DNA from: Candidatus Woesearchaeota archaeon
GTDB lineage: Archaea; Nanobdellota; Nanobdellia; SCGC-AAA011-G17; UBA489
Direction of reading: 5' to 3'
Assembly (NCBI GenBank): GCA_964343875.1
Contig: CAYFJW010000004.1
Location: forward strand, 18,395 to 82,394
Length of the DNA: 64,000 bases
Position 1 is the stretch's first letter, and each line of letters starts with the position of its first letter. The translations under genes and the position numbers were made by a program. The notes under the pieces were generated by a model. That model searched no databases. It was given only the letters and a program-made list of their open reading frames with translations, and was not told where the DNA came from. Positions 26,243-50,924 of this stretch are shown here, in pieces.

Positions 26243-26307
26243 TTATTCTATGCAAAAAGTATTAAAAGGGATTAGTCCTTGGAATATTGTTATGAGGTGT
26301 GGACTGA

Positions 26308-26865: not shown

Positions 26866-26866
26866 G

Positions 26867-28575: not shown

Positions 28576-30858
28576 ATGGCTTTTCAAAAAGAGGGAGTTT
28601 ATCAGGTAATTAGGGAGGGGAAGGAAGAAGTTTTGAAGGTTAATGCGGCTGCTTGGTCATATACTCCTTCCGTTGAAGATGTTCCCAATGTAATGGCTGA
28701 TGTCATCGATATGTTGGTTGCTTCTCCAGGCATAAAGAGGATTATATTCAATCAGAGAAAGAAATTTGTTTATTCTTATGACCAAACACAAATGTTGTTA
28801 GAGGTTGCAGGAATTTATGCACATTTGATAAAAGGTAAAAGAGTGTTAAGTATTTCTCAATGGGGTTTTGATGAAGTTAGTTCTAGGTTCTATGGCGATA
28901 AGATTAGTGAGATTCAACATTTAGTTATGGGTTTGTTAAGAAGCGATCCTCTTGGTGCTTTCGTTGAGACTAAAAGAATTTTGAGAGAGGAGAAAATATT
29001 ATTGCAAAGAGACAAGGATGAAAGGATTGCCAAAGCGAGAACAAATTATATTTCTTTGTTGACTGATATGGTTGAGTTGTTGAAGAAAACCCGTTTGGTT
29101 CAAGTTGTTAAAGATAGGCTTGATGGTTTTCATTTAGGGGATAGGAGTTTGTATCGTGATATCTTTCGGGCAACAGTTACACCCGACTTTATGTATACTC
29201 GTTTGAGAGCGAATCCTCCATTGGATGGTGAGGAATTAGATTATTATTCAAACGGAAGTAATGAAATTACAATATTTAGAATGCCGAATGATATTAAGAC
29301 GTATTATCATGCTGTTCCAATCGAGTTTAAGTTAAGGGAAGATGAGTATGAATTATTGGATCTAGCAAAGAGTGTTTTAGCAGGGCATAAACCCCGAAAT
29401 GAGGAGTTTTTAGACCCTGGGAGGATGAGGACTACGTTCTACAATATTGGAAGAGATTTGTTGGATGAGCTTGCGAAGAACAAGGGTTATGATATCCCTT
29501 ATGAAAGAATTTGTGAACTTGCAAAGATTTTGGTTAGGTATACTGTTGGATTTGGGTTAATTGAGGTGTTGCTGTCGGATAAGAAAGTTCAGGATGTTAC
29601 AATTAATAGCCCTATTGGAAAGTCTCCAATATTTTTAGTTCATCAAGATTACGGAGAGTGTTTTACAAATATATTGCCTAGTTTTGATGATGCAGAAAGT
29701 TGGGCAACAAAGTTTAGGTTAATTAGTGGAAGGCCATTGGATGAAGCGAATTCTGTTTTGGATACGGAGTTAGCAATTCCCGGTGCAAGAAGTAGAGTTG
29801 CAATTATGACTAGGCCGTTGAGTCCGCAAGGTTTGGCTTTCGCTATGAGAAGACATAGAGATAGGCCTTGGACATTACCCTTATTTGTTAATAATAGAAT
29901 GATTAGTCCGCTTGGTGCGGGGTTAATTAGTTTCTTAATTGATGGTGCAAGAACAATGCTTGTTGCTGGAACAAGAAGTAGTGGTAAAACAAGTTTACTT
30001 GGGAGCTTTTTAGTTGAAATAATGAGGAAGTATAGGGTGATTACAGTTGAAGATACATTAGAATTGCCTGTTGAATACATGCGTAAGTTAGGGTACAATA
30101 TTCAAAATATGAAGGTTAGGTCTGCATTGACTAAGGGTGGCTCTGAGCTTGGCGCTGATGATGGGATCAGGACTAGTCTAAGGCTTGGGGACAGTAGTTT
30201 GATTATTGGAGAGGTTAGGAGTTTGGAGGCTAAGGCTCTTTATGAGGCTATGAGGACTGGTGCTTTAGCTAATGTTGTTGCAGGCACAATTCACGGTGCA
30301 AGTCCGTACGGTGTTTATGATAGAGTTGTTAATGATTTAGAAGTTCCTAAGACAAGTTTTAAGGCAACCGATGTGATTGTTGTTGCGAATCCTGTTAAGA
30401 CTGCAGATGGTTTGAGTAGTTGGAAGAGAGTTTTACAATTAACAGAAGTTAGAAAACATTGGCAAGATGACCCTTTAACCGAAAGAGGTTTTGTTGATTT
30501 AATGAGGTATGATACTAAGAAAGATGAGTTAGTTCCAACTGCAGACTTGTTGAATGGTGAAAGTGAAGTTGTTAAGGCTGTTGCAGGGAGTGTTAGGGAA
30601 TGGGTTGGAAATTGGGACGCTGTTTGGGAAAACATAATGTTAAGAGCGAAGATAAAACAAACCTTAGTTGAATATGCAAACAAAACGGGGAACAGGGAAA
30701 TTTTAGAATCTAACTTTGTTGTGGCATCTAATGATATGTTTCATCGTTTGATTGAACAAGTTAGAGGGGAAGTTGGAGCAATAGATTCTAATCGTGTATT
30801 TTATGAGTGGGACGATTGGGTTAGAAAATCAATAAAAAGCACTAAGAAAAAAATTTAG
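28576..30858 (+). CDS. Type IV pilus / archaellum-type secretion ATPase (FlaI/PilB/VirB11 superfamily) with a long N-terminal extension, 760 aa
   Basis: GFGLIEVLLSDKKVQDVTINS, Walker A-region LVAGTRSSGKTSLLG, Walker B / Asp box SLIIGEVRSLEA, His box AGTIHGASP. Confidence 0.85.
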   Translation: MAFQKEGVYQVIREGKEEVLKVNAAAWSYTPSVEDVPNVMADVIDMLVASPGIKRIIFNQRKKFVYSYDQTQMLLEVAGIYAHLIKGKRVLSISQWGFDEVSSRFYGDKISEIQHLVMGLLRSDPLGAFVETKRILREEKILLQRDKDERIAKARTNYISLLTDMVELLKKTRLVQVVKDRLDGFHLGDRSLYRDIFRATVTPDFMYTRLRANPPLDGEELDYYSNGSNEITIFRMPNDIKTYYHAVPIEFKLREDEYELLDLAKSVLAGHKPRNEEFLDPGRMRTTFYNIGRDLLDELAKNKGYDIPYERICELAKILVRYTVGFGLIEVLLSDKKVQDVTINSPIGKSPIFLVHQDYGECFTNILPSFDDAESWATKFRLISGRPLDEANSVLDTELAIPGARSRVAIMTRPLSPQGLAFAMRRHRDRPWTLPLFVNNRMISPLGAGLISFLIDGARTMLVAGTRSSGKTSLLGSFLVEIMRKYRVITVEDTLELPVEYMRKLGYNIQNMKVRSALTKGGSELGADDGIRTSLRLGDSSLIIGEVRSLEAKALYEAMRTGALANVVAGTIHGASPYGVYDRVVNDLEVPKTSFKATDVIVVANPVKTADGLSSWKRVLQLTEVRKHWQDDPLTERGFVDLMRYDTKKDELVPTADLLNGESEVVKAVAGSVREWVGNWDAVWENIMLRAKIKQTLVEYANKTGNREILESNFVVASNDMFHRLIEQVRGEVGAIDSNRVFYEWDDWVRKSIKSTKKKI

Positions 30859-30861
30859 CAG

Positions 30862-33009
30862 GTGAAATTAATGCCTAAGAAAACTGATGACATAATTAGG
30901 GAGTATGAGAAGAAGCTTGAGGATGAGTATGGTCCTGGCTATGTTGAAGCTTTTGAGCCAGATTTGGTGAATAAAGAATATGAATTGTTTCGTTCTGAAG
31001 TTTTAGAGAGGAAGGTTACCAATTACGAGAAGTGGTGTTATGCTGCTGAAAAAATAATAAAGATTTCTCCATCTAAGAGGGACTTGCCGGAGTTAAAGAA
31101 GAGTATTGAAATTGCCCATTTGAATGTTACCCCTGAAGCTGCTGCTAGTTTTGGAGCTTTGGTTGCTTTTGGGTTGATACTTTTTGGTGTTTTGGTTATG
31201 GGGATAACTTATGCTTTTGGGAGTATTAGTTTTTTCTTTCCAATATTCTTGATTATTGCTGGTGCCTTGGCGATAAAACCTCTTAGCAATATTCCAATTT
31301 ATTTGGCCAATCGTTGGAGATTGGAAGCAAGTAATCAGATGGTTCTTTGTATTCTGTACATTGTTATGTACATGAGACATACAAGTAATTTAGAACATGC
31401 GGTTAAGTTTGCCGCAGGGCATATTGGGCCACCATTGAGTTTAGATTTTAAGAAAGTGTTCTGGGATATTCAAACTGAGAAGTATTTTAGTATTAAGGAA
31501 AGTTTGGACAAATATCTTGAGAACTGGAGAGATTATAATTTAGAATTTGTTGAATCTTTCCATTTAATTGAGGGTAGCCTGTATGAACCAAATGAGTCTA
31601 GAAGGGTTATGTTGTTAGAGAAAGCGTTGGAAGTTATGCTTGAAGGGACTTATAACAAGATGTTGCATTATGCACACAATTTGAAAGGACCCATTACATT
31701 GCTTTACATGCTTGGTGTGATATTGCCCATTTTGGGTTTGGTTATTTTTCCGTTGATTGGAAGTTTTATGGGTGGCGCTGTTAAGTGGTATCATTTGGGA
31801 ATGTTGTACAATGTTATTTTGCCGATTGTGTTGGTTATTATGGGGAGTAATATGCTTGCTAAGAGACCTACGGGTTATGGTGAGAGTGAACTGTTGAAAA
31901 GTAATCCCGAGTTTAAAGTTTATGAACAATGGGTTGTTAATGATAAGGTTGTTCCTGTAAGCCCGAAGGCTGCCAGTATACTGGTTGGCGGCGTGATTGT
32001 TTTAGTTGGTTTAATGCCTTTGTTGATACACTTAATTAATCCTGGTTATGAAATGTCTCTTGGTGCACTTGGTCCATTTTTAGATTACAAAGGCGAGAGT
32101 GGGCCATATGGTGTTGGCGCATTAATCATGGGGATGCTAATTCCTTTAGGAATTGCAATTGGTGTTTCAATGTATTACGGGATTAAGACCAATCGTTTAA
32201 TTAAGATAAAGAAAAAGGTTGATAATCTTGAAGAAGAGTTTAGTGGTGCTGTTTTTCAATTAGGGAATAGGATTGGTGATGGCATTCCTGCAGAAGTAGC
32301 CTTTGGTGAGGTTGCGAGGACAATGAGCGGGACTCCAACGGGGAACTTTTTTAGCACTGTTGATAGAAACATACGTAAGTTGGGTCATGGGATGAGCAAG
32401 GCTGTTTTTGATTCAAGAGTTGGCGCGATATTATTGTTTCCTAGTAATCTGATTCATAGCACTATGAAGGTTTTGGTTGAAAGTGCGAGAAAAGGTCCGA
32501 AGGTTGTTAGTGCAAGTTTGATTACCATCAGTAAGTATGTTGATAGAATAAAACAAGTTAATGAAAGGTTGAAAGATTTACTTGCAGATGTTTTGAGTAG
32601 TATGGTTAGTCAGATTAACTTTTTGACACCTTTGATTGCAGGTATTGTTGTGGGTGTTGGTAGCATGGTTACAACTATCATTGGTAAGCTCGGTTCCGCA
32701 TTTGATACTGTAGGGGGTGTTGGGGCAGAGGTTCCTTCAAATTTGGGTGCGCTTGCGAGCATAATGAATATAAAAGATGCAATTCCAGGTTACTTCTTCC
32801 AGTTGGTTGTTGGTTTGTATGTGTTAGAGATTACGATAGTATTGACAATACTAAGCACCAGCATTGAGAGAGGGATGGATAAAACTACTACGAGGCACAG
32901 GATTGGTAAGAATGTTAAGAAGAGCATGTTGCTGTATATGGTAGTTGCTTTGATTGGAGTGGTGTTGTTTAATTTGTTGGCAAATGCTGTTAGCTTCGCC
33001 CCATCATAG
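30862..33009 (+). CDS. FlaJ/TadC/PilC-like polytopic membrane platform protein
   Basis: 715 aa with more than 8 TM helices; positioned immediately after the ATPase as in archaeal type IV pilus and archaellum loci. Confidence 0.7.
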   Translation: MKLMPKKTDDIIREYEKKLEDEYGPGYVEAFEPDLVNKEYELFRSEVLERKVTNYEKWCYAAEKIIKISPSKRDLPELKKSIEIAHLNVTPEAAASFGALVAFGLILFGVLVMGITYAFGSISFFFPIFLIIAGALAIKPLSNIPIYLANRWRLEASNQMVLCILYIVMYMRHTSNLEHAVKFAAGHIGPPLSLDFKKVFWDIQTEKYFSIKESLDKYLENWRDYNLEFVESFHLIEGSLYEPNESRRVMLLEKALEVMLEGTYNKMLHYAHNLKGPITLLYMLGVILPILGLVIFPLIGSFMGGAVKWYHLGMLYNVILPIVLVIMGSNMLAKRPTGYGESELLKSNPEFKVYEQWVVNDKVVPVSPKAASILVGGVIVLVGLMPLLIHLINPGYEMSLGALGPFLDYKGESGPYGVGALIMGMLIPLGIAIGVSMYYGIKTNRLIKIKKKVDNLEEEFSGAVFQLGNRIGDGIPAEVAFGEVARTMSGTPTGNFFSTVDRNIRKLGHGMSKAVFDSRVGAILLFPSNLIHSTMKVLVESARKGPKVVSASLITISKYVDRIKQVNERLKDLLADVLSSMVSQINFLTPLIAGIVVGVGSMVTTIIGKLGSAFDTVGGVGAEVPSNLGALASIMNIKDAIPGYFFQLVVGLYVLEITIVLTILSTSIERGMDKTTTRHRIGKNVKKSMLLYMVVALIGVVLFNLLANAVSFAPS

Positions 33010-33069: not shown

Positions 33070-35472
33070 ATGGTAAAAGGGGTAAAGGACTTTATTTTGA
33101 ATGGAAGGACTCGTTTTGTCTTTTTGTTTTCTTTGGTTTCTTTGTTTGTTTTAAAGAGTGTTAATGCAGTGGTGTATTTAGGGCAGACTTATACTGGTTG
33201 GAGCGCTTTTGGCTATGGATTCAATGATTTGCAGAGTTTTTATTATGCTTATCCAGGCTGGATTGATTTTGTAGTGTTGTTTGCGTTGTTTTATTCTGCT
33301 GCGCTTGGTGTGTTTGGTAAGAAGTTTGAGGAGAATAATGCTGGAAAGGGATTGGCAGTTGCAATTGGTCTGGTTCTGTCTTTAAGTGTTGCTTTGTTTG
33401 AAGCTGCGCAAGGAATCTATATGTGGCAATGGGGTGCGCCACTTGTAGTTGTTGGTTTATTAGTTGCGGTGTTCTTTGGAGTGTATCATTTATCTAGGAA
33501 AATGAGGCTTGCAGGATTAACTGCATTTTTGTTGGCTGCGGTTATTACTTATTTGGTTTGGTTGGCAATTACTACTTGGACTGGCATGGGTCAAATGACT
33601 TTCATTAGTTTTACAATGGGTAATATTGATTTAGGTAATTGGTTGTTCTGGGTTTTAGTTGTTATTGGTTTGATTGCTTTGTTTGCATTGTTAAAGTCTT
33701 TGTTTTCTGGTGATGATTTCGGTGGCCGAGGACGACGTGGTCCTAGAGGTCCTCGTGGGGGTCCTGGACAGCCAGGTAGGACTGGAAGAAGTGGTAGGCG
33801 TGGCGGTAGAGGAGATCCTGGAGATAAGGGTCCGCATGGTCCAACTGGTGCTGAAGGGATAGTCGGTCCACCTGGCGATCCCGGAGGAAGAGGTCCGTCT
33901 CCTGTACCTGGTGTTCCTGGTGGAGGAACTACTCCTGGTGAACCCGGACAATTGGCGTTGCCTCCTGGTCCTGTTATGAAGGTGCTTGGTCCTGGTGAAC
34001 CCTGGAAAACACAAAAAGTTGATCCAGTTAGAATTAGAAGATTGGGCCAGATTTACAACAAGATAAGATCGCTTATAGGTAGGAATTCAAAATTGACATT
34101 ACAGTTAATCTCAGTTCTTCATGAATTGAAGAAGGGTGTTACTGATGAACCTTCCCTAGCAACTTCAGAAGGAAAGGTACAAAGAAGGATTGACAAATTA
34201 ATAAAAGAACTTACTTTGTTTAATAGGACATTGTTATCTAAGACTATAGACCTTGATGGTATTGAAAACATGCGTGCTTATTTTAAGGGCATATTGCTTG
34301 AAATGAATAAAATTATGAGAGAGCTTAGTGCAGTTTCTTCTCTTAAAGATTATATCAGGAGAGCTAACAGGATTGCACTTACTATTTGGGAAACGGACAT
34401 TAAGCAATTAAGTAAGGCTGTTCGTGTTCTTAAATCTGGGAGTAGAGAATATTTGGGGAATAATGTAGGTAAATTAACGATGCTCCAATTTGTACAAGTT
34501 TTAGTTGTTTGGAAAAAGAATTCTGGCCGGATTGTTAGAGGGGTTACTGATGGGCCTGGGGATGAGGGCGAGGTTCAAGGACATGATGTTGTCGCATTTT
34601 CTAAGGATATTTACAGGAAAATTGCTCTTGGTTGTCATACAGACAAAACTAGAGGGTACGACGAAGGAACAAGGGCAAGATTAAGAGCTATATTTGAAAG
34701 GGCAGTTCAAGCATATAAGGAAGGAGATCACCAGGAGTTAGTTAGACTTAGAGATGAGATGATTAGCATAATTGGCGATACTAAAAGTGGGGAAGGACCG
34801 AAGGCCTTAAAATCTGGGACAAGTATTGAGGCATTGGAAGATATTCTTTCTGTTCCAATTGCAATTCCAAGATCAAGAAGAGGGATCTTTGTAACAAAGA
34901 AAAAGATAAGGGAGCTTAATGTTCCCCAGTTTGCTTCTTATGTTTTGTTTTCATCAACATCTAATAGATTAAGTGATGCATATAAACTTAGGGAACAAGT
35001 GACTTCGGTGATTCCAAATGCCTTTACACAATTGACTGAAATGAGGAGACTTTTAGATAGGGCAAATTATTATGTTAAAAATTCTAGGAATTATCGAGCT
35101 TTCGTTGAACAATATGAGGAGTTGATGGCTCTTAAACCTAAGATTGATCAGTTGGCTAATGGTATGAAGGCCAATCGGTTGAATTCTGCTGCCAAAAGAG
35201 CATATACAAATCTTATTGAGAGTACTGAGTTTAATAGAGCCTTTTTGAAGAAGTTTGGACAGAGGGCAACAACCGGAGGTTGGGAGGTTGTATTTTCTGA
35301 TCCAAAGAAGGTTGCATTTATCCTAGAGTATCCTAGGAAAGATGGTGGCCAAAAGTTATTGTGGAGATATTTTAATTTATCATACGATGCATTGATTTCA
35401 CTGGATGCAATGCTGAATAAGTTGAAAGATGGTCCTGTTAGACAAATAAAGAAGGATTGGAGTAATCCATGA
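33070..35472 (+). CDS. Membrane protein with 20 consecutive collagen-like G-X-Y triplets and a long alpha-helical C-terminal domain
   Basis: About 5 N-terminal TM helices, then GGR GRR GPR GPR GGP GQP GRT GRS GRR GGR GDP GDK GPH GPT GAE GIV GPP GDP GGR GPS (aa about 216-275). The encoding DNA at about 33715-33900 is a strongly GC-rich island. Confidence 0.7.
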   Translation: MVKGVKDFILNGRTRFVFLFSLVSLFVLKSVNAVVYLGQTYTGWSAFGYGFNDLQSFYYAYPGWIDFVVLFALFYSAALGVFGKKFEENNAGKGLAVAIGLVLSLSVALFEAAQGIYMWQWGAPLVVVGLLVAVFFGVYHLSRKMRLAGLTAFLLAAVITYLVWLAITTWTGMGQMTFISFTMGNIDLGNWLFWVLVVIGLIALFALLKSLFSGDDFGGRGRRGPRGPRGGPGQPGRTGRSGRRGGRGDPGDKGPHGPTGAEGIVGPPGDPGGRGPSPVPGVPGGGTTPGEPGQLALPPGPVMKVLGPGEPWKTQKVDPVRIRRLGQIYNKIRSLIGRNSKLTLQLISVLHELKKGVTDEPSLATSEGKVQRRIDKLIKELTLFNRTLLSKTIDLDGIENMRAYFKGILLEMNKIMRELSAVSSLKDYIRRANRIALTIWETDIKQLSKAVRVLKSGSREYLGNNVGKLTMLQFVQVLVVWKKNSGRIVRGVTDGPGDEGEVQGHDVVAFSKDIYRKIALGCHTDKTRGYDEGTRARLRAIFERAVQAYKEGDHQELVRLRDEMISIIGDTKSGEGPKALKSGTSIEALEDILSVPIAIPRSRRGIFVTKKKIRELNVPQFASYVLFSSTSNRLSDAYKLREQVTSVIPNAFTQLTEMRRLLDRANYYVKNSRNYRAFVEQYEELMALKPKIDQLANGMKANRLNSAAKRAYTNLIESTEFNRAFLKKFGQRATTGGWEVVFSDPKKVAFILEYPRKDGGQKLLWRYFNLSYDALISLDAMLNKLKDGPVRQIKKDWSNP

Positions 35473-35509
35473 GGAAATATTTAAATAGATTTAAGATGGT
35501 GATAAGAAG

Positions 35510-35932
35510 ATGGCAGAATTATTAATACTTCCGGCAATTTATTTGGGAGTAGTTATTGGGCTATATGAGGCAATTCTGATGCATAGGGATGTGAGTGTTC
35601 CTGCGCATAGATTTGGCCATATGATTCATGCTTTAATATTTGCATTGGTTGCAGTTTTTGCAACAATGAATGTTGACTTTGTATTTTCTGTAATTCCTGC
35701 ATTAGCTAATATCAAGTTTGTTGGAAACCCTTTAGTGTTTAGGATTGGAATTGGTATTATTGCTATGTTTAAAATACATGCAATTAGTGCGGCTGCTCCT
35801 GGAATGGCTGGTGGCAGTGTTGGTTTGAAGGAGAAGTGGAGTCATAGTTTTATTATCGGGGCGTTGATTGTTGCGGCACCTTACATATGGCCTTTTATTG
35901 AGCCAGCTGTAGGGTTCTTGCCAGGAATTTAA
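35510..35932 (+). CDS. Membrane protein, hypothetical
   Basis: 140-aa hydrophobic ORF. Confidence 0.4.
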   Translation: MAELLILPAIYLGVVIGLYEAILMHRDVSVPAHRFGHMIHALIFALVAVFATMNVDFVFSVIPALANIKFVGNPLVFRIGIGIIAMFKIHAISAAAPGMAGGSVGLKEKWSHSFIIGALIVAAPYIWPFIEPAVGFLPGI

Positions 35933-36913: not shown

Positions 36914-38071
36914 ATGGTGGTCTTGACTAAACTTAAAAAAAAAGGAGATTTAAGACATAGTACTTTAATATTACTTATTCTTGCTGGGGTGGGACTAATC
37001 ATTTACTCTTTCTTTTTTGCAGATGTTAAAGAGATTATTGAGACGACTACAGAAGATGAGGTTTGCAGAACGAGTGCTGCTTTAAAGACTAAAACAAAGG
37101 GACCAGTGGGCACGGAATCTCCAGTTAGCTTAAAGTGTGCTATTAATGACTTTAAATCAGATGCTAAATCAAAAGAGGAAGTCAAGTTAGAAATTGCTAA
37201 AGAGATGTATCGTTGTTGGTATAAATATGGGGAGGGCCAGTTAGATTTTTATGATAGTTGGGATTTTGGTGTAAGTGACACTCATTGTTTAATCTGTTCA
37301 AGAATTAAGTTTGATGAAGATGTTGAAGAAATAACCTTTGGAGAATTTGGTGCTTATTTGAACTCTCCATTGCCAGGAAGGGAAGAAACTTTTGCGGAAT
37401 ATTTTACAAAAACACCTCACGCTAAGATACAAATAGGGCCCAAACCTGGAGAGGGTACAACTGCAAGTTCTTTGATGGAGCTAGATAAAGGAACATATGT
37501 TGTTTTTAGAGTGAACAAGCATAATGAAGATAACCAGGCGATTGCTTCTTTGTTTACAAGCGAAGAAGCGGATTTATCTTATACTGCTTCCGGTGTGCTT
37601 GCTGCAGAAGGCGCGGTTTATCAGGGTGCTAGAAGTTATGCATTGGGTGGTGAGGTTATTGGTGGTTTCCAAGATGCGAGTGGAAATTTGTTTTTTTCAC
37701 ATGCGGATGATGCTGGCAAATATTTTGTGAGGGATGCTTCTGGAAAGTTTGTATCTGGTTTTGGATCGACAAAGTTCAATTCTATTGCTGAAATGAATAG
37801 TTTTGCAGTTGGTAAAAATCTGAAGGTTGTTTCAAAAAGCTCTGCTAGGACATTGCTCCGGAAAACTGCTAATCTTGGTGAGAAAGCTGCAATAGGTGTT
37901 GCTTCAAAAGTAGTTGGAAAGAAGGTTGCGGGAAAGCTTATCCCTGTTGCCGGATGGGCGTTGGCAGTTTATGATGCAGTTAGTGCAATAGCGTGGGCAG
38001 ATGAGCTTCACCCAGCGGTTGTGCTTTATGGGGTAAATGATATAAATGCTGCCTGTGATACATTAGCATGA
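36914..38071 (+). CDS. Secreted or membrane-anchored protein, hypothetical
   Basis: N-terminal TM/signal anchor LILLILAGVGLIIYSFFF; 385 aa; Gly/Ala-rich C-terminus. Confidence 0.45.
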   Translation: MVVLTKLKKKGDLRHSTLILLILAGVGLIIYSFFFADVKEIIETTTEDEVCRTSAALKTKTKGPVGTESPVSLKCAINDFKSDAKSKEEVKLEIAKEMYRCWYKYGEGQLDFYDSWDFGVSDTHCLICSRIKFDEDVEEITFGEFGAYLNSPLPGREETFAEYFTKTPHAKIQIGPKPGEGTTASSLMELDKGTYVVFRVNKHNEDNQAIASLFTSEEADLSYTASGVLAAEGAVYQGARSYALGGEVIGGFQDASGNLFFSHADDAGKYFVRDASGKFVSGFGSTKFNSIAEMNSFAVGKNLKVVSKSSARTLLRKTANLGEKAAIGVASKVVGKKVAGKLIPVAGWALAVYDAVSAIAWADELHPAVVLYGVNDINAACDTLA

Positions 38072-38080
38072 GGTTTTTAT

Positions 38081-38215
38081 ATGGAAGTTGGTGAGTTAGC
38101 AGGAATTTTAATTTTTATTACAGTACTGGTAATTTTAATTTTTTTATTAACTGGTGCAGGAGATAAAATGTTTAGTTTAACTGATAGGCTTAGGGAGTTG
38201 TTGATTTTTAGATGA
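38081..38215 (+). CDS. Small hydrophobic protein (44 aa), not in the ORF track
   Basis: MEVGELAGILIFITVLVILIFLLTGAGDKMFSLTDRLRELLIFR; sits in the gap before the pilin genes. Confidence 0.3.
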   Translation: MEVGELAGILIFITVLVILIFLLTGAGDKMFSLTDRLRELLIFR

Positions 38216-38355
38216 TGCTTGGGAAAAAAGGAATGGATCTCATGGTCGGAAGGCTGGTTAAAATATTGATTGTTATCCTTGTTTTAGTTGTTATTTTTTA
38301 TTTTTTAAAAAGGGTTTCTGATGCGGGAAACCTCTTTTTAGGGATGTTTGACTAG
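38212..38355 (+). CDS. Short pilin-like protein (47 aa) with the MxLGKKG class-III-signal-like N-terminus, not in the ORF track
   Basis: MMLGKKGMDLMVGRLVKILIVILVLVVIFYF. Its first 22 nt (atgatgcttgggaaaaaaggaatgg) are nearly identical to the start of the next gene at 38392. Confidence 0.4.
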   Translation: MMLGKKGMDLMVGRLVKILIVILVLVVIFYFLKRVSDAGNLFLGMFD

Positions 38356-38391
38356 CATAATGTTTAAAAGGATAAGAGTTGTTATTTTCGG

Positions 38392-40101
38392 ATGGTGCTT
38401 GGGAAAAAAGGAGTGAGTCTTCCTATAAATCTGATAATTATTATAATTATTGGACTTTTTGTTTTTGGGGCAGCTTATTTTGGTTTTATTAAACCTTCAC
38501 AAGAAGGAAGTAGCGTATTTGGAGATCAGCTTGATGCGTTTAAGGATAAAAAATTTAGCTTAATGGATTTTGATACGCTAACAAAAGAAGAAAAACAAAA
38601 AATTGCAGAGGATAGTCCTCGGTCTATTGTAGAAAATACACTAAACTCTATTGATGGTTTAATTCCTGGAGACTGTAATAGGGCTAAGAAGATTGCGGAG
38701 TTACTGAGGAATGAGAAAAAAGTATCTGGCTTTGATAAAGATTTTGAACTTACGGTTGCTGATATTGAGATACTGGATGATCTGATCCAAAAAGCTGATG
38801 GTTGTATCAAACAAGGAGGGGTTGATTCTATTGATGCACAAATTAGAAATATCAATGGTTTAATTAAATCTGGAGAGGACGGGTTAGGGTCTTGCAGTAG
38901 TGCAAAGTTAATTTCTGAAGGTCTTCTGAGTAGCGGGGTTCAGAGAAGTGATGGGGCGGTCGTAATGCCAGACCAATCTCAAGAACTCCAGATTAAAGCT
39001 GCAATTGAAAGGGCAGACCTTTGTATCGAGGTTTATGAGGTGCCTTTGAGAGAAGAAAAAGAAGAAATAAGGAAGGCAAATGATAACCTAATAGCTGAAA
39101 AAGAATGGTATGGTGTGTTGTTGAAGGATTATGATGCCGCCCTTAAAAGATTTAAACTAGATGTTCCAAGAGTCTTTGATTTTGAGAGTGAGTGTAGTAA
39201 TGAGAATAAAAACCAGTGGGAACTGTTATCTGGAAGGACACAAGATACTAGGACTAAGGTTGTAGGAGAGGAGGGTGATTATTCTGGTTTAGATAGGAAG
39301 GAAAAAGAAATTATATTCTCTCTTGACGATCAAGCAGATTATTTTAATTTTGTTTGTAAGATGCGGGATGGAGATTGTAAGAGGTCTTATTATTCTCCCT
39401 CTAAATTTTTTGAGTTTTCTGATGTAGATTTACCTAGGGAATTGAAATCTGAAGAAATATATGCTGTGTACAAATTAGAAGAATCTCAATGTTATAAGGG
39501 TAAAAAAGATTTTGTTAATTCATGGAAAAGTTTTGAAGATGTTAAAGAATCTGATAAAGATCAAAGCTTGTATACTGCCTTTTTTAGTGATTATATTTCA
39601 ATGTTGAATGTGGATATTTTAGATTATAGCTTTGCTATGATGAACAGCATGAAATATGTTGAGGAGAAAATCACAAGTTATGGTGGGAATGATGATGAAG
39701 AACTTGCGGCATTTAGGAATGATAATATTATTGGTTGCCCATGGGACTTTTCCGATTATGATGAGAATATCAATAGCAATCCTGAGCATTGTAGTAGCTT
39801 TAACTATGCTGTTGTGAGCAAGTTTTTGGGTCCCTATGGATTGGATATATTGGATGACTCTCTTAGTGGGTCTGAACAGTTGTTGTTAGCTGTTGAAGAG
39901 GGATGGATACTTGATCCCGTATTATGTTATTGGAGAACTTCGGGGGACAATACTTGTAATTCTTGTAAGTATGGTTCTTATCAGGGGAAGTTAAATAGCT
40001 GTGGAGAATATTTAGAACAGAGTACTTGTGAATTGAATTCTTGTGGTCAGAATGCTCCAGGTGGTTGTAGGTGGACTGGTTCGAAGTGTATTGAGAGTTA
40101 G
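38392..40101 (+). CDS. Large pilin-like / surface protein with class-III signal peptide and Cys-rich C-terminus (candidate adhesin)
   Basis: MVLGKKG|VSLPINLIIIIIIGLFVFG N-terminus; 569 aa; more than 20 Cys, concentrated C-terminally. Confidence 0.55.
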   Translation: MVLGKKGVSLPINLIIIIIIGLFVFGAAYFGFIKPSQEGSSVFGDQLDAFKDKKFSLMDFDTLTKEEKQKIAEDSPRSIVENTLNSIDGLIPGDCNRAKKIAELLRNEKKVSGFDKDFELTVADIEILDDLIQKADGCIKQGGVDSIDAQIRNINGLIKSGEDGLGSCSSAKLISEGLLSSGVQRSDGAVVMPDQSQELQIKAAIERADLCIEVYEVPLREEKEEIRKANDNLIAEKEWYGVLLKDYDAALKRFKLDVPRVFDFESECSNENKNQWELLSGRTQDTRTKVVGEEGDYSGLDRKEKEIIFSLDDQADYFNFVCKMRDGDCKRSYYSPSKFFEFSDVDLPRELKSEEIYAVYKLEESQCYKGKKDFVNSWKSFEDVKESDKDQSLYTAFFSDYISMLNVDILDYSFAMMNSMKYVEEKITSYGGNDDEELAAFRNDNIIGCPWDFSDYDENINSNPEHCSSFNYAVVSKFLGPYGLDILDDSLSGSEQLLLAVEEGWILDPVLCYWRTSGDNTCNSCKYGSYQGKLNSCGEYLEQSTCELNSCGQNAPGGCRWTGSKCIES

Positions 40102-40138
40102 AAACTTTTAAATACATCAAAAAATGTGGAGATAACAG

Positions 40139-40558
40139 ATGAGAAGAATTGGTGTTTTGGGAAGGTATTTTAAGGATAAGAGGGGTGTAGAACTTACTCT
40201 TAATACAGTTATAATTGCTATTCTTGTTGTGCTTGTTCTTATTGTTCTTATTGGATTTTTCCTTGGAGGGACTGGGAAAGCTAAATCACAGATACAAGAT
40301 CTTTTTGGTTCAAGTACTAGTGCTTCTTCGGTGAGTATTGCGATTGAACAGTGCAAGATCTATTGTGATCAAGTTAAGGATTCTGGTATGACTGCTGAAC
40401 AGGCTAAAACATCTCTTTATTGTACGAAAAGTTTTAAATTAGACACTAATGGGGATGGTGTGGCAGATTTAGAGGGCGGATCGGATAGTAAGGAGATAGA
40501 TTACAAATGTAGTGGTCCTCCTTTGTCCGTTGTGTGTAATCCGGTCGTAACTTGTTAA
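40139..40558 (+). CDS. Type IV pilin-like protein (class-III signal peptide)
   Basis: FKDKRG|VELTLNTVIIAILVVLVLIVLIGFF; Cys-containing C-terminal domain. Confidence 0.55.
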   Translation: MRRIGVLGRYFKDKRGVELTLNTVIIAILVVLVLIVLIGFFLGGTGKAKSQIQDLFGSSTSASSVSIAIEQCKIYCDQVKDSGMTAEQAKTSLYCTKSFKLDTNGDGVADLEGGSDSKEIDYKCSGPPLSVVCNPVVTC

Positions 40559-40613
40559 ATAATAAATGGGGTTTGCTCAATAAGTTTATAAGTGTGTGAG
40601 CTGTCTTTGTGAG

Positions 40614-41129
40614 ATGTTTAATGGCAAGAGGGGACAGTCCATAGGAATGTTTGAATCTATTCCTGGTATCCTTCTTGGGGCTATAATTACTATTGCAATT
40701 GTGGGTGTCATTGCAGCTTTTTGGACTCTGTTTTTCAATACAGGAGGGATTGATTCTACAACGAGGAATACTTTTGATTTGGTTGTTAATGATATTTTAG
40801 ATATGCAGGGTTTAGATGAGCCATCTAGAAATGTTAATATTCAGTTTGAAGATGAGTACACATTGGTTGCGTTTAGTAAGGATTCATGGAGTGTTGGGGC
40901 ATGTAGGGGTCTCGAAATTGTTAGGCCCTTAAAAAGCTGTGAGGGGGCCTGTATCTGTATTTGCATGAATGAGCAAGGAGAAAATATGTGCAATGTAAAG
41001 AATGTAATCTGTAGGGATTTTGATAACATTGATTTGGATTTTGAAGGAGAATGTAATCTAATTGATGGAACTGGTGAGCCACAAAGTATTCAGCTTAGAC
41101 AAACAAACAACAAGTTCAACATCACTTGA
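40614..41129 (+). CDS. Type IV pilin-like protein, likely starting at MFNGKRG
   Basis: NGKRG|QSIGMFESIPGILLGAIITIAIVGVIAAF. Confidence 0.5.
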   Translation: MFNGKRGQSIGMFESIPGILLGAIITIAIVGVIAAFWTLFFNTGGIDSTTRNTFDLVVNDILDMQGLDEPSRNVNIQFEDEYTLVAFSKDSWSVGACRGLEIVRPLKSCEGACICICMNEQGENMCNVKNVICRDFDNIDLDFEGECNLIDGTGEPQSIQLRQTNNKFNIT

Positions 41130-41170
41130 TTTATCAAAAACCATTTAAGGTTAAAGTCTATCTTTTTGGT

Positions 41171-41560
41171 ATGAATAAAAAAGGGACTTCGTTATGGTAT
41201 ATCTGGCTCGTTCATTTTTTCTTGGTAGTGGTTATATTTTTAACACTCTATGGTAAGGTTGTAGCAAGTAAGGATGATACGGGTTATAACTTAGATTTTT
41301 ACGCAAAAGATATAGCTTATGGGGTTGAAGGAATGTTGTGGGCAGATGGAGATATTTCTTATGTATACCCACTCAAAGAGAAATATGATATCCAAATTAA
41401 TAATGATATTGGGCTTGTTTTTGTGAAAAAGGGTATGGCTCAGGAAAGTTATCCTTTTAGGGTGCGACCTGGATTCTTGGTGAAGGTTGAACCTTCTTTT
41501 TTGGATGGAGAATTAGAGAATCCTTATTTGATTAGTAAGGTGGAGAGTGAAGTCACATGA
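41171..41560 (+). CDS. Pilin-like protein, likely starting at MNKKG
   Basis: MNKKG|TSLWYIWLVHFFLVVVIFL. Confidence 0.45.
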   Translation: MNKKGTSLWYIWLVHFFLVVVIFLTLYGKVVASKDDTGYNLDFYAKDIAYGVEGMLWADGDISYVYPLKEKYDIQINNDIGLVFVKKGMAQESYPFRVRPGFLVKVEPSFLDGELENPYLISKVESEVT

Positions 41561-41970
41561 GTTTTATGACTACAATGATGATGATTAAAGCGATTGCAGC
41601 TGTGATCATAGTTACTGTTTCTTCTTTTGTTTTTGTGGCTATCCTTGGCAGTCATTTAGGGAGAGAAGTCTATACAGAGGATATTGAATTTTCTTTGGCA
41701 AAAGAGCACGTAGTTAATGTTTTTACAGAGGATGGTGTGACTACAAAAAAAAGTTGGGATGAGTTTGAGATGATGGAAGATCCTAGGTTTGCCATGAAGG
41801 TGGAACTTGGGGAAGAGAGTTATATTTCTAATTCTCGGCTTTATGAATATGGAGGTCTTTGTTCAATTGATGGGGCCTTTATTATGTGTAGTCCGGAATT
41901 CAATGACTTCTATTTGGTTGATGGTGATTTAGAAAGCGCAAAGCTTAGTGTGGTGATTGAAATTGGATAA
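41557..41970 (+). CDS. Pilin-like / membrane-anchored small protein
   Basis: N-terminal hydrophobic helix IKAIAAVIIVTVSSFVFVAIL; start overlaps the previous stop. Confidence 0.4.
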   Translation: MSFMTTMMMIKAIAAVIIVTVSSFVFVAILGSHLGREVYTEDIEFSLAKEHVVNVFTEDGVTTKKSWDEFEMMEDPRFAMKVELGEESYISNSRLYEYGGLCSIDGAFIMCSPEFNDFYLVDGDLESAKLSVVIEIG

Positions 41971-42439
41971 GAAGGGTCTGTTTGGAATATCTGAAACATT
42001 TGCAATATTCTTGTTAGTAATTGCTTTTGTTGGCTTTTGGCTTGCTTTTGAGATCGCAGATAGTTTTGGCTCTGGAGATGGGGAGTTGGTTTCATATGAA
42101 ATTGAGGAATCTAAAGAGTATGGCCTGGTGTTTTTAAAAACACCTTTAGAAATTGATGGTATTAAGATGACTTTTGCAGATTTAATTGTTGAAAGTGTGG
42201 AAAGTAAAGATTATGAACTACTTGAAGAATCTTTGGATGAACAATTTGATGAGTCTGAGATTTATTGGTTGGTCTTAGTTCATGATTCTGAGGGTAATCT
42301 GGTTAAAAAATTAACAAGATCTGGATGGTCTTCTAAGGGCGGGCAGAGGGAAAATATTCAGGAAATTAGGGTTCCTGGTTATAATGAAGATGAATTGAGA
42401 ATAAGTCTAAGATTAACTGGGGGAGAGAGGCTAGTTTAG
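41957..42439 (+). CDS. Pilin-like protein (class-III signal peptide)
   Basis: LDKKG|LFGISETFAIFLLVIAFVGFWL. Confidence 0.5.
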   Translation: MKLDKKGLFGISETFAIFLLVIAFVGFWLAFEIADSFGSGDGELVSYEIEESKEYGLVFLKTPLEIDGIKMTFADLIVESVESKDYELLEESLDEQFDESEIYWLVLVHDSEGNLVKKLTRSGWSSKGGQRENIQEIRVPGYNEDELRISLRLTGGERLV

Positions 42440-43261
42440 ATGGCATTGAATTGTTTGAAATCAAAGAAAGGACTTCTTATTGAAGGGACTGCAATAGTAA
42501 TCGTATTTCTCTTAAGTACAGCTATGGTTTATTTGTTGTGGGATAATACTGAGAGTCATGAAGAATTAAAGATTGGACAGATGTTGTTGGATGTTTATAG
42601 GGTAGAGGAAAAAGTAGAGGAATTTGAATACTTTTTTGTGAAAAGTGGCGAATATTCCTTGTTAAATGGACTGAAAAATAATATCAATGTTGGTCTGCTT
42701 GATGGTACTAAATGTAGTGTTCTATATGACTTGGAAAAGGGTGAAGAATGTTATATTGAGAATTTAATTGATGTTTTTGGAGAGAATGTTGCTGAAAAAA
42801 CGAGTGAGCATTTCATAGAAGAATTTGATAATAGTGTGTATGGTTTGAATTTTAAAAAAGTGAGATTTAAAACCCAAAAAGTGAATAAGGAATTAATTTT
42901 AAATATTAAAAGTGATGAGAAAATTGATTTTGGTAGGGATGCTGAGAGAAAAATGGTGTATAATGTTTCAATAGACTTTAATACTAAACTAGAATTTGCT
43001 TTTGATGAGTATCTTAAGATGATTACACCATTAAAAAATAATTTAGCTTGTTTGGAAAGTCTGAGTGATATAAACTCTGAGGGTTCAGCAGTGAGTAATT
43101 GCCTGAATGCCTACCCAGAATTTTCGAATTTAAAGAAAGAAGGAGGGATCTTATCGTTTGATTATACTGTTAAAGGTGTTTTATTTGAAAAGAAATTAAC
43201 TGGGCCTTTTAGATTGGATATTGAGGGGTTCAGGAGGGCTACGATGGCCAGTATCGCCTAA
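42440..43261 (+). CDS. Pilin-like protein (class-III signal peptide), 273 aa
   Basis: KSKKG|LLIEGTAIVIVFLLSTAMVYL. Confidence 0.5.
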   Translation: MALNCLKSKKGLLIEGTAIVIVFLLSTAMVYLLWDNTESHEELKIGQMLLDVYRVEEKVEEFEYFFVKSGEYSLLNGLKNNINVGLLDGTKCSVLYDLEKGEECYIENLIDVFGENVAEKTSEHFIEEFDNSVYGLNFKKVRFKTQKVNKELILNIKSDEKIDFGRDAERKMVYNVSIDFNTKLEFAFDEYLKMITPLKNNLACLESLSDINSEGSAVSNCLNAYPEFSNLKKEGGILSFDYTVKGVLFEKKLTGPFRLDIEGFRRATMASIA

Positions 43262-44335: not shown

Positions 44336-44365
44336 TTTTTTAAGTTAGGAGGTGTTTTAGGGAGT

Positions 44366-44761
44366 ATGGTAAAGGGAAGGGGAAGGAAGACAAAGGTTAG
44401 CGTCAAGAAGGGTAATGATTTTTTATCGATATTTATTTTAGTTGTGTTGTTGTTTATCTTTGCTAGTTTGCGTTTTGGCGGTTTTTTGACTGGGAGTGCT
44501 GTTTCTGATGTTCAACTTAGTGTTTCTGATGTTCAACTTAGAAATGAGGTTTGGAAGGTTGATTCTTGCAGTGTTCAATCGGCAGAAGATATGGCGTTAG
44601 AGCTTAAGTGGAACTATGGTTGTAGCGTTAATTATTGTCGTGAAGCGGCTTATGGGTTGGATTTGCCATTGGGCAATATTGCCGATTTAAACTGTGTTAC
44701 TAGTGATCAGAGAGCTAAGTGGGAAGGCCACTGTAATGATATCTTTGAGGCTATATGCTGA
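44366..44761 (+). CDS. Small pilin-like, Cys-rich secreted protein
   Basis: VKKG|NDFLSIFILVVLLFIFASL N-terminus; contains an 18-bp perfect tandem repeat (gtttctgatgttcaactta x2 at about 44499-44540) encoding SVSDVQL x2. Confidence 0.4.
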   Translation: MVKGRGRKTKVSVKKGNDFLSIFILVVLLFIFASLRFGGFLTGSAVSDVQLSVSDVQLRNEVWKVDSCSVQSAEDMALELKWNYGCSVNYCREAAYGLDLPLGNIADLNCVTSDQRAKWEGHCNDIFEAIC

Positions 44762-44897
44762 GATTTAGGCATTTACTGCACTTACTTTCTAGCACATATT
44801 TCTTTAAAAAATCCAGAGATTTAACGGTGTTGGCTCGAAAGAGCATATAAAATTAAAACCTTATGGGGCTTTTGCTAAGCAAGAGTAGGAGAATAAA

Positions 44898-45191
44898 ATG
44901 AAAAAAAACGAAAAAAGTTCTATGGACGCTGTTCCAAATAGGCCATTCAAAGAATGGAAAGCAGGTAATCTTAAGGTTGCTCTGTGGAAAAATAAGAAAG
45001 ACATGGAAGACGGTTCTGAGATCGAATTCAAGACAGTTAGTTTGACTAGAAGTTATAGGAAGACTGGTGAAGATATATGGAGACATGATGTGATTAATTT
45101 ACGTAGGAATGATCTTCAGAAAGCAATATTAGTTTTGCAGAAAGCACAAGAAGACTTGTTGTTGTTTGATGCAGGAAAAGATGATGAGTGA
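44898..45191 (+). CDS. Hypothetical small protein co-oriented upstream of radA
   Basis: 97-aa ORF ending 8 nt before radA. Confidence 0.35.
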   Translation: MKKNEKSSMDAVPNRPFKEWKAGNLKVALWKNKKDMEDGSEIEFKTVSLTRSYRKTGEDIWRHDVINLRRNDLQKAILVLQKAQEDLLLFDAGKDDE

Positions 45192-45198
45192 GGTGTGA

Positions 45199-46910: not shown

Positions 46911-46992
46911 GAAGAACTAGTCGAATTATTGGCCCAACTTTAGGAAATGCCTTTGCCAGAATATCTTTATTGACTTAGTTAAACAAGATAAG

Positions 46993-48151: not shown

Positions 48152-48246
48152 TTTGGTTCTCGAATGAATGTTTATTTGTTTAAATATTTTATCCAGACTA
48201 AACCGTAAGTATTTTCATTTTATACTGATTTAAACTTTGCATAAAA

Positions 48247-49527: not shown

Positions 49528-50049
49528 ATGGCAGAAGAGAAGAAGTGTATTTTTTGTGGAATTGCTGATGGGTCTATGCAGAGTGCAAAGATCTATGAAG
49601 ATGATTTAGTTGTTTGTGTTTTAGATATTTTTCCTGCTTCAAAAGGTCATGTTTTAGTTATTCCTAAGAAGCATATTGCTATTAGTGCGCAGTTGGACGA
49701 TAATTTGTCTGCGCATTTGTTTAATGTTGGGAACAAAATGTCTGCATTATTGTTTGAAGCGATGAAGGCACAAGGGACTAATTTGTTGATTGCAAATGGT
49801 GATGTTGCTGGGCAGAAGGTTGATCATTTGGTTTTACACGTTATTCCCAGGTATCCAGAAGATGGTGTTAATATTTCTTGGAATGCCGAACAGATTAAAG
49901 AAGATGAATTGAAGGATACTTTTGAGAAGATTACTTCTATGACTCAAGGTAAACGAGAAGTAAGGGAAGAACCAAAAGAGGAACCTAAGAAAGAGGTTGT
50001 TGAAGAGATAGAAGAAGAGACTTTTGATGAGGAAGAGAGGATTCCTTAG
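49528..50049 (+). CDS. HIT-family (histidine triad) hydrolase with acidic C-terminal tail
   Basis: HVLVIPKKHI and histidine triad DHLVLHVIPR. Confidence 0.8.
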   Translation: MAEEKKCIFCGIADGSMQSAKIYEDDLVVCVLDIFPASKGHVLVIPKKHIAISAQLDDNLSAHLFNVGNKMSALLFEAMKAQGTNLLIANGDVAGQKVDHLVLHVIPRYPEDGVNISWNAEQIKEDELKDTFEKITSMTQGKREVREEPKEEPKKEVVEEIEEETFDEEERIP

Positions 50050-50924
50050 ATAACTGGAAGGAATAGGGCCCCCCCAACGATTAATGTTACTATCGTGCCT
50101 ATTAGGAAAGGGGGTACGAAGGGAATGCCTTCCTTGACTAGGACTTGTTTTATGTTTGCTTTTTTTAGTAGCGATATTTCTTTTTTGTTTATCCCGTAGG
50201 GGTTGACTTTGTAGATTAGTTTTTTATTTTTGTAAACATCTTTTTGTACCCAGTCTCCCACTGTTAGTTTGTTGACTGGAGTTTCTTTGTACATGCATGC
50301 CAGTTCTGTGCTCTTTAGTGCGGTTATCAAGTAAGGAGCTATTAATAATATTAATGAAAGCGTCCCTATTAATAATCCTGCACTTGCAGGGAATATTGTG
50401 AAGGATGAAATGAACAATAGTGTCGCAATAATTAACATGCCTATTTTAATTCCAATTGTTTTATATGAGTTGTTTAGTTTTTTGAATTCTTTTTTGAATG
50501 CAACCTTGTTTTTTAGTGAAAGGTGTAGGGCAAAGAATATTCCATATATTGCCCCAATTATTAAGATGTTCAATAGTAAAATTGCTGGAAATGGAATTAT
50601 TGAAGTTTCTGCTAAGTAAGCTGGTCTTATTGCGAATGCAGAACCCAGTGCAGTTATTAGTTTTGTATCCCCTCCGCCCCACTGTCTAGTGTAGTACATT
50701 ATGTTTCCAAATATGAAGAATATTGCAAAGAAGATTAATGTTTGGACTATATAGGTTGAATCTTTTAATAGGATGGACTCTACCCCTCTGGTTGCGATCA
50801 CGAAGAAGAGTAAGCTATAGCTTAGCCAATCTGGGATTTCTCTTGTTCTTAAGTCTGAGAATGAGGCGATAGTTAGGATAACTAATGTGGCTGCTGTGAT
50901 CAGGATATCGAATAATACGATCAT
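50046..50924 (-). CDS. A24-family prepilin / preflagellin peptidase (PibD/FlaK/EppA-like)
   Basis: Catalytic Asp boxes SFSDLRTREIPDWL and RQWGGGDTKLITALG; polytopic; 292 aa. Confidence 0.8.
   Translation of the reverse strand: MIVLFDILITAATLVILTIASFSDLRTREIPDWLSYSLLFFVIATRGVESILLKDSTYIVQTLIFFAIFFIFGNIMYYTRQWGGGDTKLITALGSAFAIRPAYLAETSIIPFPAILLLNILIIGAIYGIFFALHLSLKNKVAFKKEFKKLNNSYKTIGIKIGMLIIATLLFISSFTIFPASAGLLIGTLSLILLIAPYLITALKSTELACMYKETPVNKLTVGDWVQKDVYKNKKLIYKVNPYGINKKEISLLKKANIKQVLVKEGIPFVPPFLIGTIVTLIVGGALFLPVI

Follow-up and report, generated by a model that had tools for sequence, protein, structure and literature searches.

A putative type IV pilus subunit operon with a variable gene cassette in a Woesearchaeota/Nanoarchaeia archaeon

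Ten tightly packed, co-oriented genes at positions 36914-43261 of a 64,000-nucleotide (nt) stretch of archaeal DNA (the window; all coordinates are window positions) are most probably an operon that encodes the structural subunits of an archaeal type IV pilus (type IV filament, TFF) system in a DPANN archaeon of the Woesearchaeota/Nanoarchaeia; the probability of this reading is put at about 0.8. The evidence consists of the leader motif of the encoded proteins, the synteny of the locus with those of relatives, the homology or fold of three parts of an assembly machine, and a pattern of variability in which the array lies between conserved flanks.

The window belongs to an AT-rich archaeal contig (G+C content about 37%). 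Exactly identical proteins are also encoded on the 88.8-kb ENA metagenome contig ERZ930065 (PRJEB17505) and in 14 more assemblies. The organism is regarded as a DPANN archaeon because its nearest named relatives are metagenome-assembled 'Candidatus Woesearchaeota' and 'Nanoarchaeia' genomes. Related loci on Woesearchaeota/Nanoarchaeia contigs are labelled L005, L006, L007/L012, L008, L009, L010, L011, L014 and L015. The block that extends from an assembly ATPase gene to the array is present in L005, L006, L007/L012, L008, L010, L011 and L015, and in part in L009 and L014. Its order is ATPase, membrane protein of 712-715 amino acids (aa), protein of 620-920 aa, 140-aa membrane protein, reverse-strand gene, array and RPA-like gene. 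From the ATPase gene to the 273-aa gene at the end of the array, gene order is the same in L005, L006, L007, L008, L010, L011 and L015.

Leader motif and assembly machinery

Every gene of the array encodes an N-terminal hydrophobic helix, and neighbouring genes are separated by -14 to +55 nt (Table 1). A preliminary description of this DNA had placed the array at 38081-43261, a span of nine co-oriented genes, and thereby started it one gene too late, overlooking gene 36914 (KLKKKG/DLRH...). The motif [KR][KR]G followed by a hydrophobic stretch is found in eight of the ten genes (36914, 38212, 38392, 40139, 40614, 41171, 41957 and 42440). The class III signal-peptide N-termini that had been described throughout the array are thus seen in seven of the nine genes of the span first given; a Gly at -1 ahead of a hydrophobic segment, whose presence in all had been proposed as a check, is lacking in 41557, whose leader ends in K-A, and in 38081, which has no leader. 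When 84 greedy non-overlapping open reading frames (ORFs) of the window were counted, the motif occurred in 8/10 array genes versus 6/74 of the remaining ORFs; the latter six include 44366, 53119, a lipoprotein with a lipobox (56918) and one channel-like protein. Another lipobox protein, 55829, was picked up by the strict motif only. Hydropathy reaches at least 2.3 over 15 residues between +1 and +25 in every motif-bearing protein.

The K/R-G site is retained in positional orthologues from eight other contigs, though these are just 20-60% identical, which bears out the class III leader as originally read. It is kept in every sequence of families 40139, 40614, 41171, 41957 and 42440, in 6/7 sequences of family 36914 (leaders ending in K/R-G or K-A) and in 5/6 of family 38212, but in 1/4 of family 38081 and 2/8 of family 41557, where only the L007 and L010 orthologues have it. 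Visual inspection alone showed TATA-like A/T boxes some 25-33 nt ahead of 36914, 38392 and 40139.

Table 1. Genes of the array, of the assembly machinery and of the surrounding region. A slash marks the end of the predicted leader.
Position	Strand	Product	Remarks
28576..30858	+	Secretion/assembly ATPase (type IV filament superfamily), 760 aa, N-terminal extension of ~300 aa	Pfam T2SSE 1e-13, 51 bits versus cut-off of 24.9
30862..33009	+	Candidate membrane platform protein, 715 aa, ~9 hydrophobic segments	Starts 4 nt past the ATPase gene
33070..35472	+	800-aa membrane protein with collagen-like Gly/Pro/Arg-rich stretch (residues ~215-295)	Pfam Collagen 3.9e-5, below cut-off
35510..35932	+	140-aa conserved membrane protein, possibly a machine component	Syntenic; 49-87% identical in all related loci
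36914..38071	+	385-aa pilin-like protein, first array gene (MVVLTKLKKKG/DLRHSTLILLILAG...)	Six invariant Cys; passes FlaFind 1.2 motif
38081..38215	+	44-aa single-helix protein, begins MEVGELAGILIF...	No class III leader
38212..38355	+	47-aa mini protein (MMLGKKG/MDLMVGRLVKILIV...), possible headless pilin or membrane accessory	KKG in 5/6 of family
38392..40101	+	569-aa modular pilin-like protein (MVLGKKG/): pilin-type N-terminal ~120-140 aa and hypervariable C-terminal part	18 Cys
40139..40558	+	139-aa candidate major pilin (…KDKRG/VELTLNTVIIAILVVLVLIVLIGFFLGGT…; KDKRG/VELTLNTVII)	Six conserved Cys
40614..41129	+	171-aa pilin-like protein (MFNGKRG/QSIGMFESIPGILLGAIITIAIV...)	Eight invariant Cys; K/R-G in 7/7; passes FlaFind motif
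41171..41560	+	129-aa pilin-like protein (MNKKG/TSLWYIWLVHFFLVVVIFL...)	M[NY]K[KR]G at N-terminal start in 8/8 family sequences
41557..41970	+	137-aa N-terminally anchored protein (…MMMIKA/IAAVIIVTV…), class III signal uncertain	K-A fits FlaFind motif
41957..42439	+	160-aa pilin-like protein (MKLDKKG/LFGISETFAIFLLVIAF...)	K/R/N-K/R-G in all positional orthologues, including L005_11800 and L011_11773
42440..43261	+	273-aa pilin-like protein (…KSKKG/LLIEGTAIVIVFLL…), last array gene	K/R-G in 7/7; passes FlaFind motif
44366..44761	+	131-aa Cys-rich protein, possible class III signal (…VKKG/NDFLSIFILVV…), outside the variable cassette	Motif in 4/6; six conserved Cys
50046..50924	-	A24 prepilin/preflagellin peptidase, 292 aa	Pfam Peptidase_A24 6e-16, 59 bits versus cut-off of 26.5
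53119..54345	+	408-aa protein with class III-like N-terminus (…RRNKKG/AVPGAAYLVMMIALFLVLYVV…)	Passes FlaFind motif

The array is linked to the assembly ATPase, the platform candidate and the A24 peptidase, and the linkage is conserved in seven related loci. The genes for the first two lie upstream of the array and had gone unmentioned in the preliminary description. The ATPase matches Archaeoglobus GspE (2OAP, E-value 3.7e-25), CpaF (8e-19) and FlaI (1e-17) in the PDB, and is 71-95% identical over the portions held in related loci; against the NCBIfam models for TadA and FlaI it gives about 1e-33, which is below the family cut-offs (FlaI equivalog score 114 versus 550). An archaellum was considered and rejected on this low FlaI score and on the finding of no Arch_flagellin, FlaF/G or FlaH-like (KaiC) gene among the scanned proteins. 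The platform candidate, present as a single 712-715-aa gene in all related loci, has more than 3,800 homologues, unnamed but for one 'TadB' label from the Joint Genome Institute. In its AlphaFold2 (AF2) model (predicted local distance difference test, pLDDT, 80.8) a domain superposes in Foldseek on the cytoplasmic domain of OutF/EpsF (GspF), with probability 0.99-1.0, target template modelling (TM) score 0.69-0.75 and root-mean-square deviation ~3 Å for OutF 5nbg and EpsF 2vma/2vmb/3c1q; the probability for the PilC model 3jc8 is 0.63. The A24 peptidase had already been recognized at its position, and the Pfam match confirms it together with an alignment to FlaK 3S0X (2.7e-6) in which both Asp motifs correspond (SDLRTREIPD over QDFRSREIED, GGGDTKL over GGGDGKM). 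It is conserved in position in L005, L007 and L015, and its NCBIfam FlaK equivalog score is below cut-off, so that no subtype is assigned to it. Each of the four core components by which bioRxiv 10.64898/2026.04.22.720090 defines an archaeal type IV filament system is thus represented.

Several results weigh against a pilus operon. Pilin and archaellin models of Pfam and NCBIfam gave no match above cut-off for any protein of the window. A class III predictor had been proposed as a check, and its outcome was divided: the FlaFind 1.2 motif [KRDE][GA][ALIFQMVED][ILMVTAS], as quoted in PMC4307647 and re-implemented here in place of the original program, was matched by 53119 and by five of the ten array proteins (36914, 38392, 40614, 41557 and 42440), so that half of the array misses it. 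Proteins 38212, 40139, 41171 and 41957, like 44366, fail at +1 or +2, and among them is the candidate major pilin 40139 (G/VE, at +2). In three proteins (36914, 38212 and 40614) charged residues come after the Gly, and the hydrophobic run is uninterrupted only from +6 to +11 onwards. The 44-aa protein 38081 and most orthologues of 41557 have no class III leader. For the platform candidate the whole-chain Foldseek E-value is about 1, only the domain-level probability and TM-score being strong; no sequence match to T2SSF was obtained with Pfam, NCBIfam or the PDB, even with a 28-sequence profile, and hhalign detected no internal repeat between its N-terminal and C-terminal halves. The AF2 model of 40139 is of only moderate confidence and has no significant structural neighbour in the PDB by Foldseek. 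Because only half of the proteins meet the FlaFind 1.2 motif, the array motif would deviate from the FlaFind training set, the predicted cleavage context itself being conserved.

These misfits raise the question whether the products are ordinary signal-anchor or Sec-secreted surface proteins, in which K/R-K/R-G reflects the positive-inside rule and which are neither cleaved by the A24 peptidase nor polymerised. That no pilin family model matches, that several N-termini miss the FlaFind motif or carry charges after the Gly, and that 55829, 56918 and an ion-channel-like protein on the minus strand (36186) also have K/R-G before a helix, so that the bare motif yields false positives, all speak for this explanation. 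The positive-inside rule, however, needs no Gly at -1, but this residue (in rare cases Ala or Ser instead) persists in almost all orthologues, and in 140 of the 146 family 40139 representatives it closes a leader of mostly 5 aa. The genes moreover form a conserved block with the ATPase and platform genes, with an A24 peptidase nearby, and no such N-terminus is found on the remaining membrane proteins of the window. Ordinary anchoring is accordingly judged very improbable.

If the array encodes pilins, we infer cleavage, filament assembly, the roles of the individual subunits and the biological function as follows. Precursors would enter the membrane via the N-terminal helix, and the A24 aspartic peptidase would cleave behind the Gly of [KR][KR]G and so remove the short basic leader. 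The ATPase, acting on the platform protein, would then lift the mature subunits from the membrane, with their N-terminal helices stacking into a filament. The 139-aa protein would be the bulk (major) subunit. Five or six of the remaining array genes would encode minor pilins; among these, the 171-, 129-, 160-, 273- and 385-aa proteins would be present at low abundance, priming the assembly and capping the fibre. The 569-aa protein would be a modular pilin whose Cys-rich head can be exchanged and probably serves adhesion, and the 44-, 47- and 137-aa proteins may be headless subunits or small accessories made of a membrane helix. For a DPANN archaeon, the function that first comes to mind is attachment to partner cells.

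Candidate subunits and their relatedness

The 139-aa protein (40139) is the best candidate for the major pilin. Residues K14 and G16 and residues of the helix are invariant in 29 homologues. There are 42 close homologues, and the family comprises 961 clusters (E <=0.001) in a library of 1.8 billion proteins. In the 140 representatives mentioned above the leader reads MNK[KR]G, 5 aa being the commonest length in the family. The consensus after the Gly is Q-[GE]-L-[PS]-[LM]-N-T-I-I-I-A-I-L-V... (in short, MNK[KR]G/Q.L..NTIII), and about 26 hydrophobic residues follow the leader, with an FF.GG break at about +24 to +28. None of the 29 and 123 members scanned matched a Pfam or NCBIfam model; Arch_flagellin gave sub-threshold matches only, in 3/29 and 1/123. 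Matches of the family profile to the PDB are weak (E about 1), and three of four are type IV pilins aligned at the cleavage site, including the geopilin KLRNKKG/FTLIELL and the Saccharolobus pilin 8fjs; pilins rank first and third, an unrelated receptor helix second. The AF2 model (pLDDT 74) combines a 38-residue N-terminal helix (residues 21-58) with a small head of alpha/beta type. The DNA of the array can still be aligned to L005 in two stretches only, one of which encodes the leader and helix of 40139.

Both short genes near the start of the array, 38081 and 38212, are real genes: public assemblies include calls for them, and most related loci keep them at the same position and length. The 38081 product is conserved in position and length in L005, L007, L008 and L015. 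It has no upstream in-frame extension, with an in-frame stop codon just upstream, and starts straight with MEVGELAGILIF..., resembling an already processed pilin N-terminus. Its L010 counterpart (55 aa) is the sole version with a full leader, MIHLANKKG/.

The 47-aa product of 38212 might itself be the bulk subunit, as a headless pilin of the Flp/Epd type, with 40139 in a minor role. Its mature length of about 40 aa is near that of Flp-type pilins, and the Epd major pilin of Methanococcus has no globular domain. KKG is widely kept in the family, the C-terminal motif aG.lFLgmF is conserved, and the N-terminus is homologous to that of 40139 (E 6e-5 against the 40139-family profile; hhalign 94%). 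Against this, charges at +2, +7 and +10 break the would-be core helix in the window protein, and the L005 orthologue is without a K-G site. The N-terminal helix of 40139, moreover, is by far the most conserved, even at the DNA level across cassette types, as would be expected of a filament-core subunit. A major role for 38212 is therefore considered unlikely, and 40139 is retained as the candidate major pilin.

The starts of genes 38212 and 38392 are identical in 21 of 22 nt, a near-identity that had been noted before and stands. The 16-mer GCTTGGGAAAAAAGGA occurs in exactly two copies in the window, where 0.12 would be expected even at two mismatches. The likeness fades at once, a 29-mer being unmatched at up to three mismatches, and comprises only the 7-codon leader in an AT-rich genome; in most relatives the two leaders are not notably alike. 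The recent duplication or gene conversion that had been read from it is weakly founded (16-21 nt, in a pattern not conserved in relatives), and gene conversion between 38212 and 38392 is unproven. At the profile level the N-termini of 38212, 38392 and 40139 are homologous, the 40139-family profile detecting that of 38392 (3.6e-5) as well as that of 38212 within the window. When the ten families were compared profile against profile, similarity was limited to the first ~35 residues, save for 38392 versus 40139. Since pairwise similarity stops there, the array genes are distinct families and not recent copies, and recent tandem duplication of the whole array was rejected on the same ground.

In the exceptional pair, residues 2-120 of 38392 align with residues 11-101 of 40139 (hhalign probability 94.8%), and the similarity spans about 90-120 residues. 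Only five homologues of the 569-aa protein were found among 5.8 billion proteins, one of them full length, and no domain match was obtained for it. KKG/ is present in four of five aligned members (L011 has MNKKG/D); BLAST did not retrieve the proteins at the corresponding position in L007 (QKKG/) and L010 (NKVG/). Its C-termini are unrelated between loci and contain 18, 8 or 2 Cys, the most extreme variability in the array. An adhesin-like nature is plausible as a candidate function.

N-X-S/T sequons are scarce in the pilin-like proteins (36914-43261, 44366 and 53119), with 4 observed versus 13.9 expected from composition; in the other ORFs of the window 66 were observed and 86 expected. Many characterised archaeal pilins and archaellins are N-glycosylated, unlike these sequon-poor proteins.

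Variable cassette and neighbouring genes

The array forms a variable cassette with sharp borders, and its flanks are conserved. DNA similarity between the window and L005, the closest relative, is 84-85%, breaks off at ~36816 and resumes at 43244. One border thus lies in the promoter region of 36914 and the other 17 nt before the stop codon of the 42440-43261 gene. Inside the cassette only two islands align with L005, one within 36914 and the other at 40139-40272. Mean protein identity to the window was compared for core proteins (platform, 140-aa and RPA proteins) and pilin-like proteins, and amounts to 90% and 30% for L005, 72% and 54% for L008, and 81-89% and 56-74% for L015, respectively. 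Pilin similarity therefore does not track core similarity, as the values for L005 and the more distant L008 show. At least two cassette types are present, one in the window, L015, L008 and L009, the other in L005 and perhaps L011.

This pattern points to whole-block exchange or to long-lived allelic types. The variability fits a surface structure under diversifying pressure, for example from partner-cell recognition or virus avoidance. A further step would be to regard the array as a swappable recognition cassette, in which whole sets of major and minor pilins including the adhesin head are recombined between Woesearchaeota lineages at the flanks (~36.8 and 43.24 kb) or kept as old allelic types, the type setting the range of partner cells that these host-dependent archaea could bind or of viruses that could bind them; this is offered tentatively, as a possibility that we hold to be somewhat doubtful.

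The 800-aa membrane protein with the collagen-like stretch is the product of a syntenic accessory gene, which separates platform gene and array throughout the related loci. Nucleotide similarity of its gene to L005 is gone at 33663-35474, and the C-terminal two thirds of the protein vary independently (46% local identity to L005 by BLASTP, 32% global identity to L015, the two measures being different). The 140-aa membrane protein that follows has no Pfam or NCBIfam family match. Upstream of the ATPase operon, at 25703-27382, three consecutive genes for multi-helix membrane proteins of 171-185 aa look like tandem paralogues.

Two further genes had been counted as pilin-like, 44366 and 53119. 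Both have K/R-G and a hydrophobic stretch, and to this extent the assignment holds; 44366 misses the FlaFind motif. The 44366 product is 73% identical to its L005 orthologue, and the L011 orthologue of 53119 is 64% identical (…QARG/AAYLIMMIALF). Farther on, the genes at 55829-56878 and 56918-57871 encode K/R-G before a helix that ends in a lipobox (LFLAGC); their products are probably lipoproteins and, judged by this feature, false positives of a naive class III scan. Situated behind 53119 and a gene for a 505-aa membrane protein, the two may constitute a surface module of their own.

Within 43319-46158 an RPA-like gene for single-stranded DNA binding lies directly 3' of the array, as it does in 7/7 relatives whose loci reach that far. 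RadA is encoded within 5 kb in the window and in L005, L006, L007 and L015. This linkage may be plain conserved gene order or hint at a link with DNA uptake. Compared with L005, the window has a 2.8-kb insertion (46185-48936) between RadA and the gene for ribosomal protein aS21. The inserted DNA contains two genes for methyltransferases and, on the minus strand, one for a free-standing LAGLIDADG endonuclease (47021-48151). The RadA gene of L006 carries an intein with a LAGLIDADG domain.

The neighbourhood of RPA in seven relatives and of RadA in four bears on the possibility that the type IV filament machine makes a short pseudopilus, a bindosome-like structure or a DNA-uptake fibre, the pilin-like proteins being pseudopilins. 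In number and order the small genes are similar to the sets of pseudopilins in type II secretion and competence systems, and archaeal filament machines with functions other than pili have been described (bioRxiv 10.64898/2026.04.22.720090). RPA and RadA are housekeeping genes, however, so that their linkage may be no more than conserved gene order, and neither class III substrate-binding proteins nor a secretin-like or ComEC-like channel were seen in the window. A hypervariable array with an exchangeable large head would also better fit an exposed adhesive fibre. The pseudopilin alternative is regarded as improbable, and an adhesive pilus is preferred.

Comparison with known systems and significance

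The Epd pilus of Methanococcus maripaludis (TFF 'system 1' or clade 1, Makarova et al. 2016) resembles the present system in its 5-13-aa leaders ending in Gly, with Gln at +1 (PMC3875500), in a multi-gene cluster with several minor and very small pilins, and in a peptidase of the A24 family. It differs in that the Pfam models covering its pilins (DUF361-type) match no protein of the array, in its Glu at +5, which is not conserved in family 40139 although Asn at +6 is, and in having two TadC-like platform genes instead of one of 715 aa. A candidate major pilin with a Cys-rich head and an ATPase with an N-terminal extension of ~300 aa likewise set the present locus apart. Epd-type system 1 is defined by two platform genes and DUF361-type pilins (bioRxiv 10.64898/2026.04.22.720090); a single platform gene was found in every locus here and no Pfam pilin domain, and assignment to this type was rejected.

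The adhesive pilins of Sulfolobales/Saccharolobus (Pilin_N, 8fjs/8fk0) also have K/R-G followed by a hydrophobic helix, in register with RRKNARG/LSGAVTALILV, but the similarity is not significant (E about 3), covers the first 60 residues only, and the Pfam Pilin_N model is unmatched. In bacteria, the type IVa minor-pilin operon FimU-PilVWX-PilY1-PilE combines four or five small pilin-like genes and a large adhesin-like gene in fixed order, as does the array, and among the pilin allele groups of Pseudomonas aeruginosa the major and minor pilins change jointly, as one block, from strain to strain and without regard to the core genome. These systems belong to another domain of life, and the sequence relationship is limited to the N-terminal helix; the present locus encodes an archaeal-type (FlaK/PibD) peptidase, and a retraction ATPase was not seen. 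The modular pilins PilB and PilC of Streptococcus sanguinis (PMC8179133) join an N-terminal pilin module to a head, comparable to the ~120-140 aa and exchangeable C-terminus of the 569-aa protein, whose head, in contrast, has no recognisable domain and only a putative binding role. The episymbiotic Saccharibacteria of the Candidate Phyla Radiation are likewise an ultrasmall, host-dependent lineage, and their type IV pili are a proposed or proven host-attachment device (PMC9938205; PMC11623550); their machinery is bacterial, however, and a corresponding role in Woesearchaeota would be by analogy.

The kind of system is not new, since archaeal multi-pilin operons with at least five minor pilins (PMC4858521; bioRxiv 10.64898/2026.04.22.720090) and pili on ultrasmall cells (PMC9938205) have already been described. 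What is new are the uncurated pilin and platform families and the behaviour of the cassette. No paper describing pilins of Woesearchaeota was found in the literature searched.

Woesearchaeota and other DPANN archaea are uncultivated, ultrasmall and thought to be attached to other cells. The locus supplies concrete filament-subunit candidates for a very widespread, unannotated machine (more than 3,800 platform members and about 960 clusters in the major-pilin family), and profiles built from these pilin and platform families would permit its annotation across metagenomes. The contrast between core and pilin proteins, mismatched with core relatedness, offers a way to test for partner specificity or for pressure from viruses. 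If the array should prove to be a swappable recognition cassette, the locus would be a genomic read-out of the host range of DPANN archaea.

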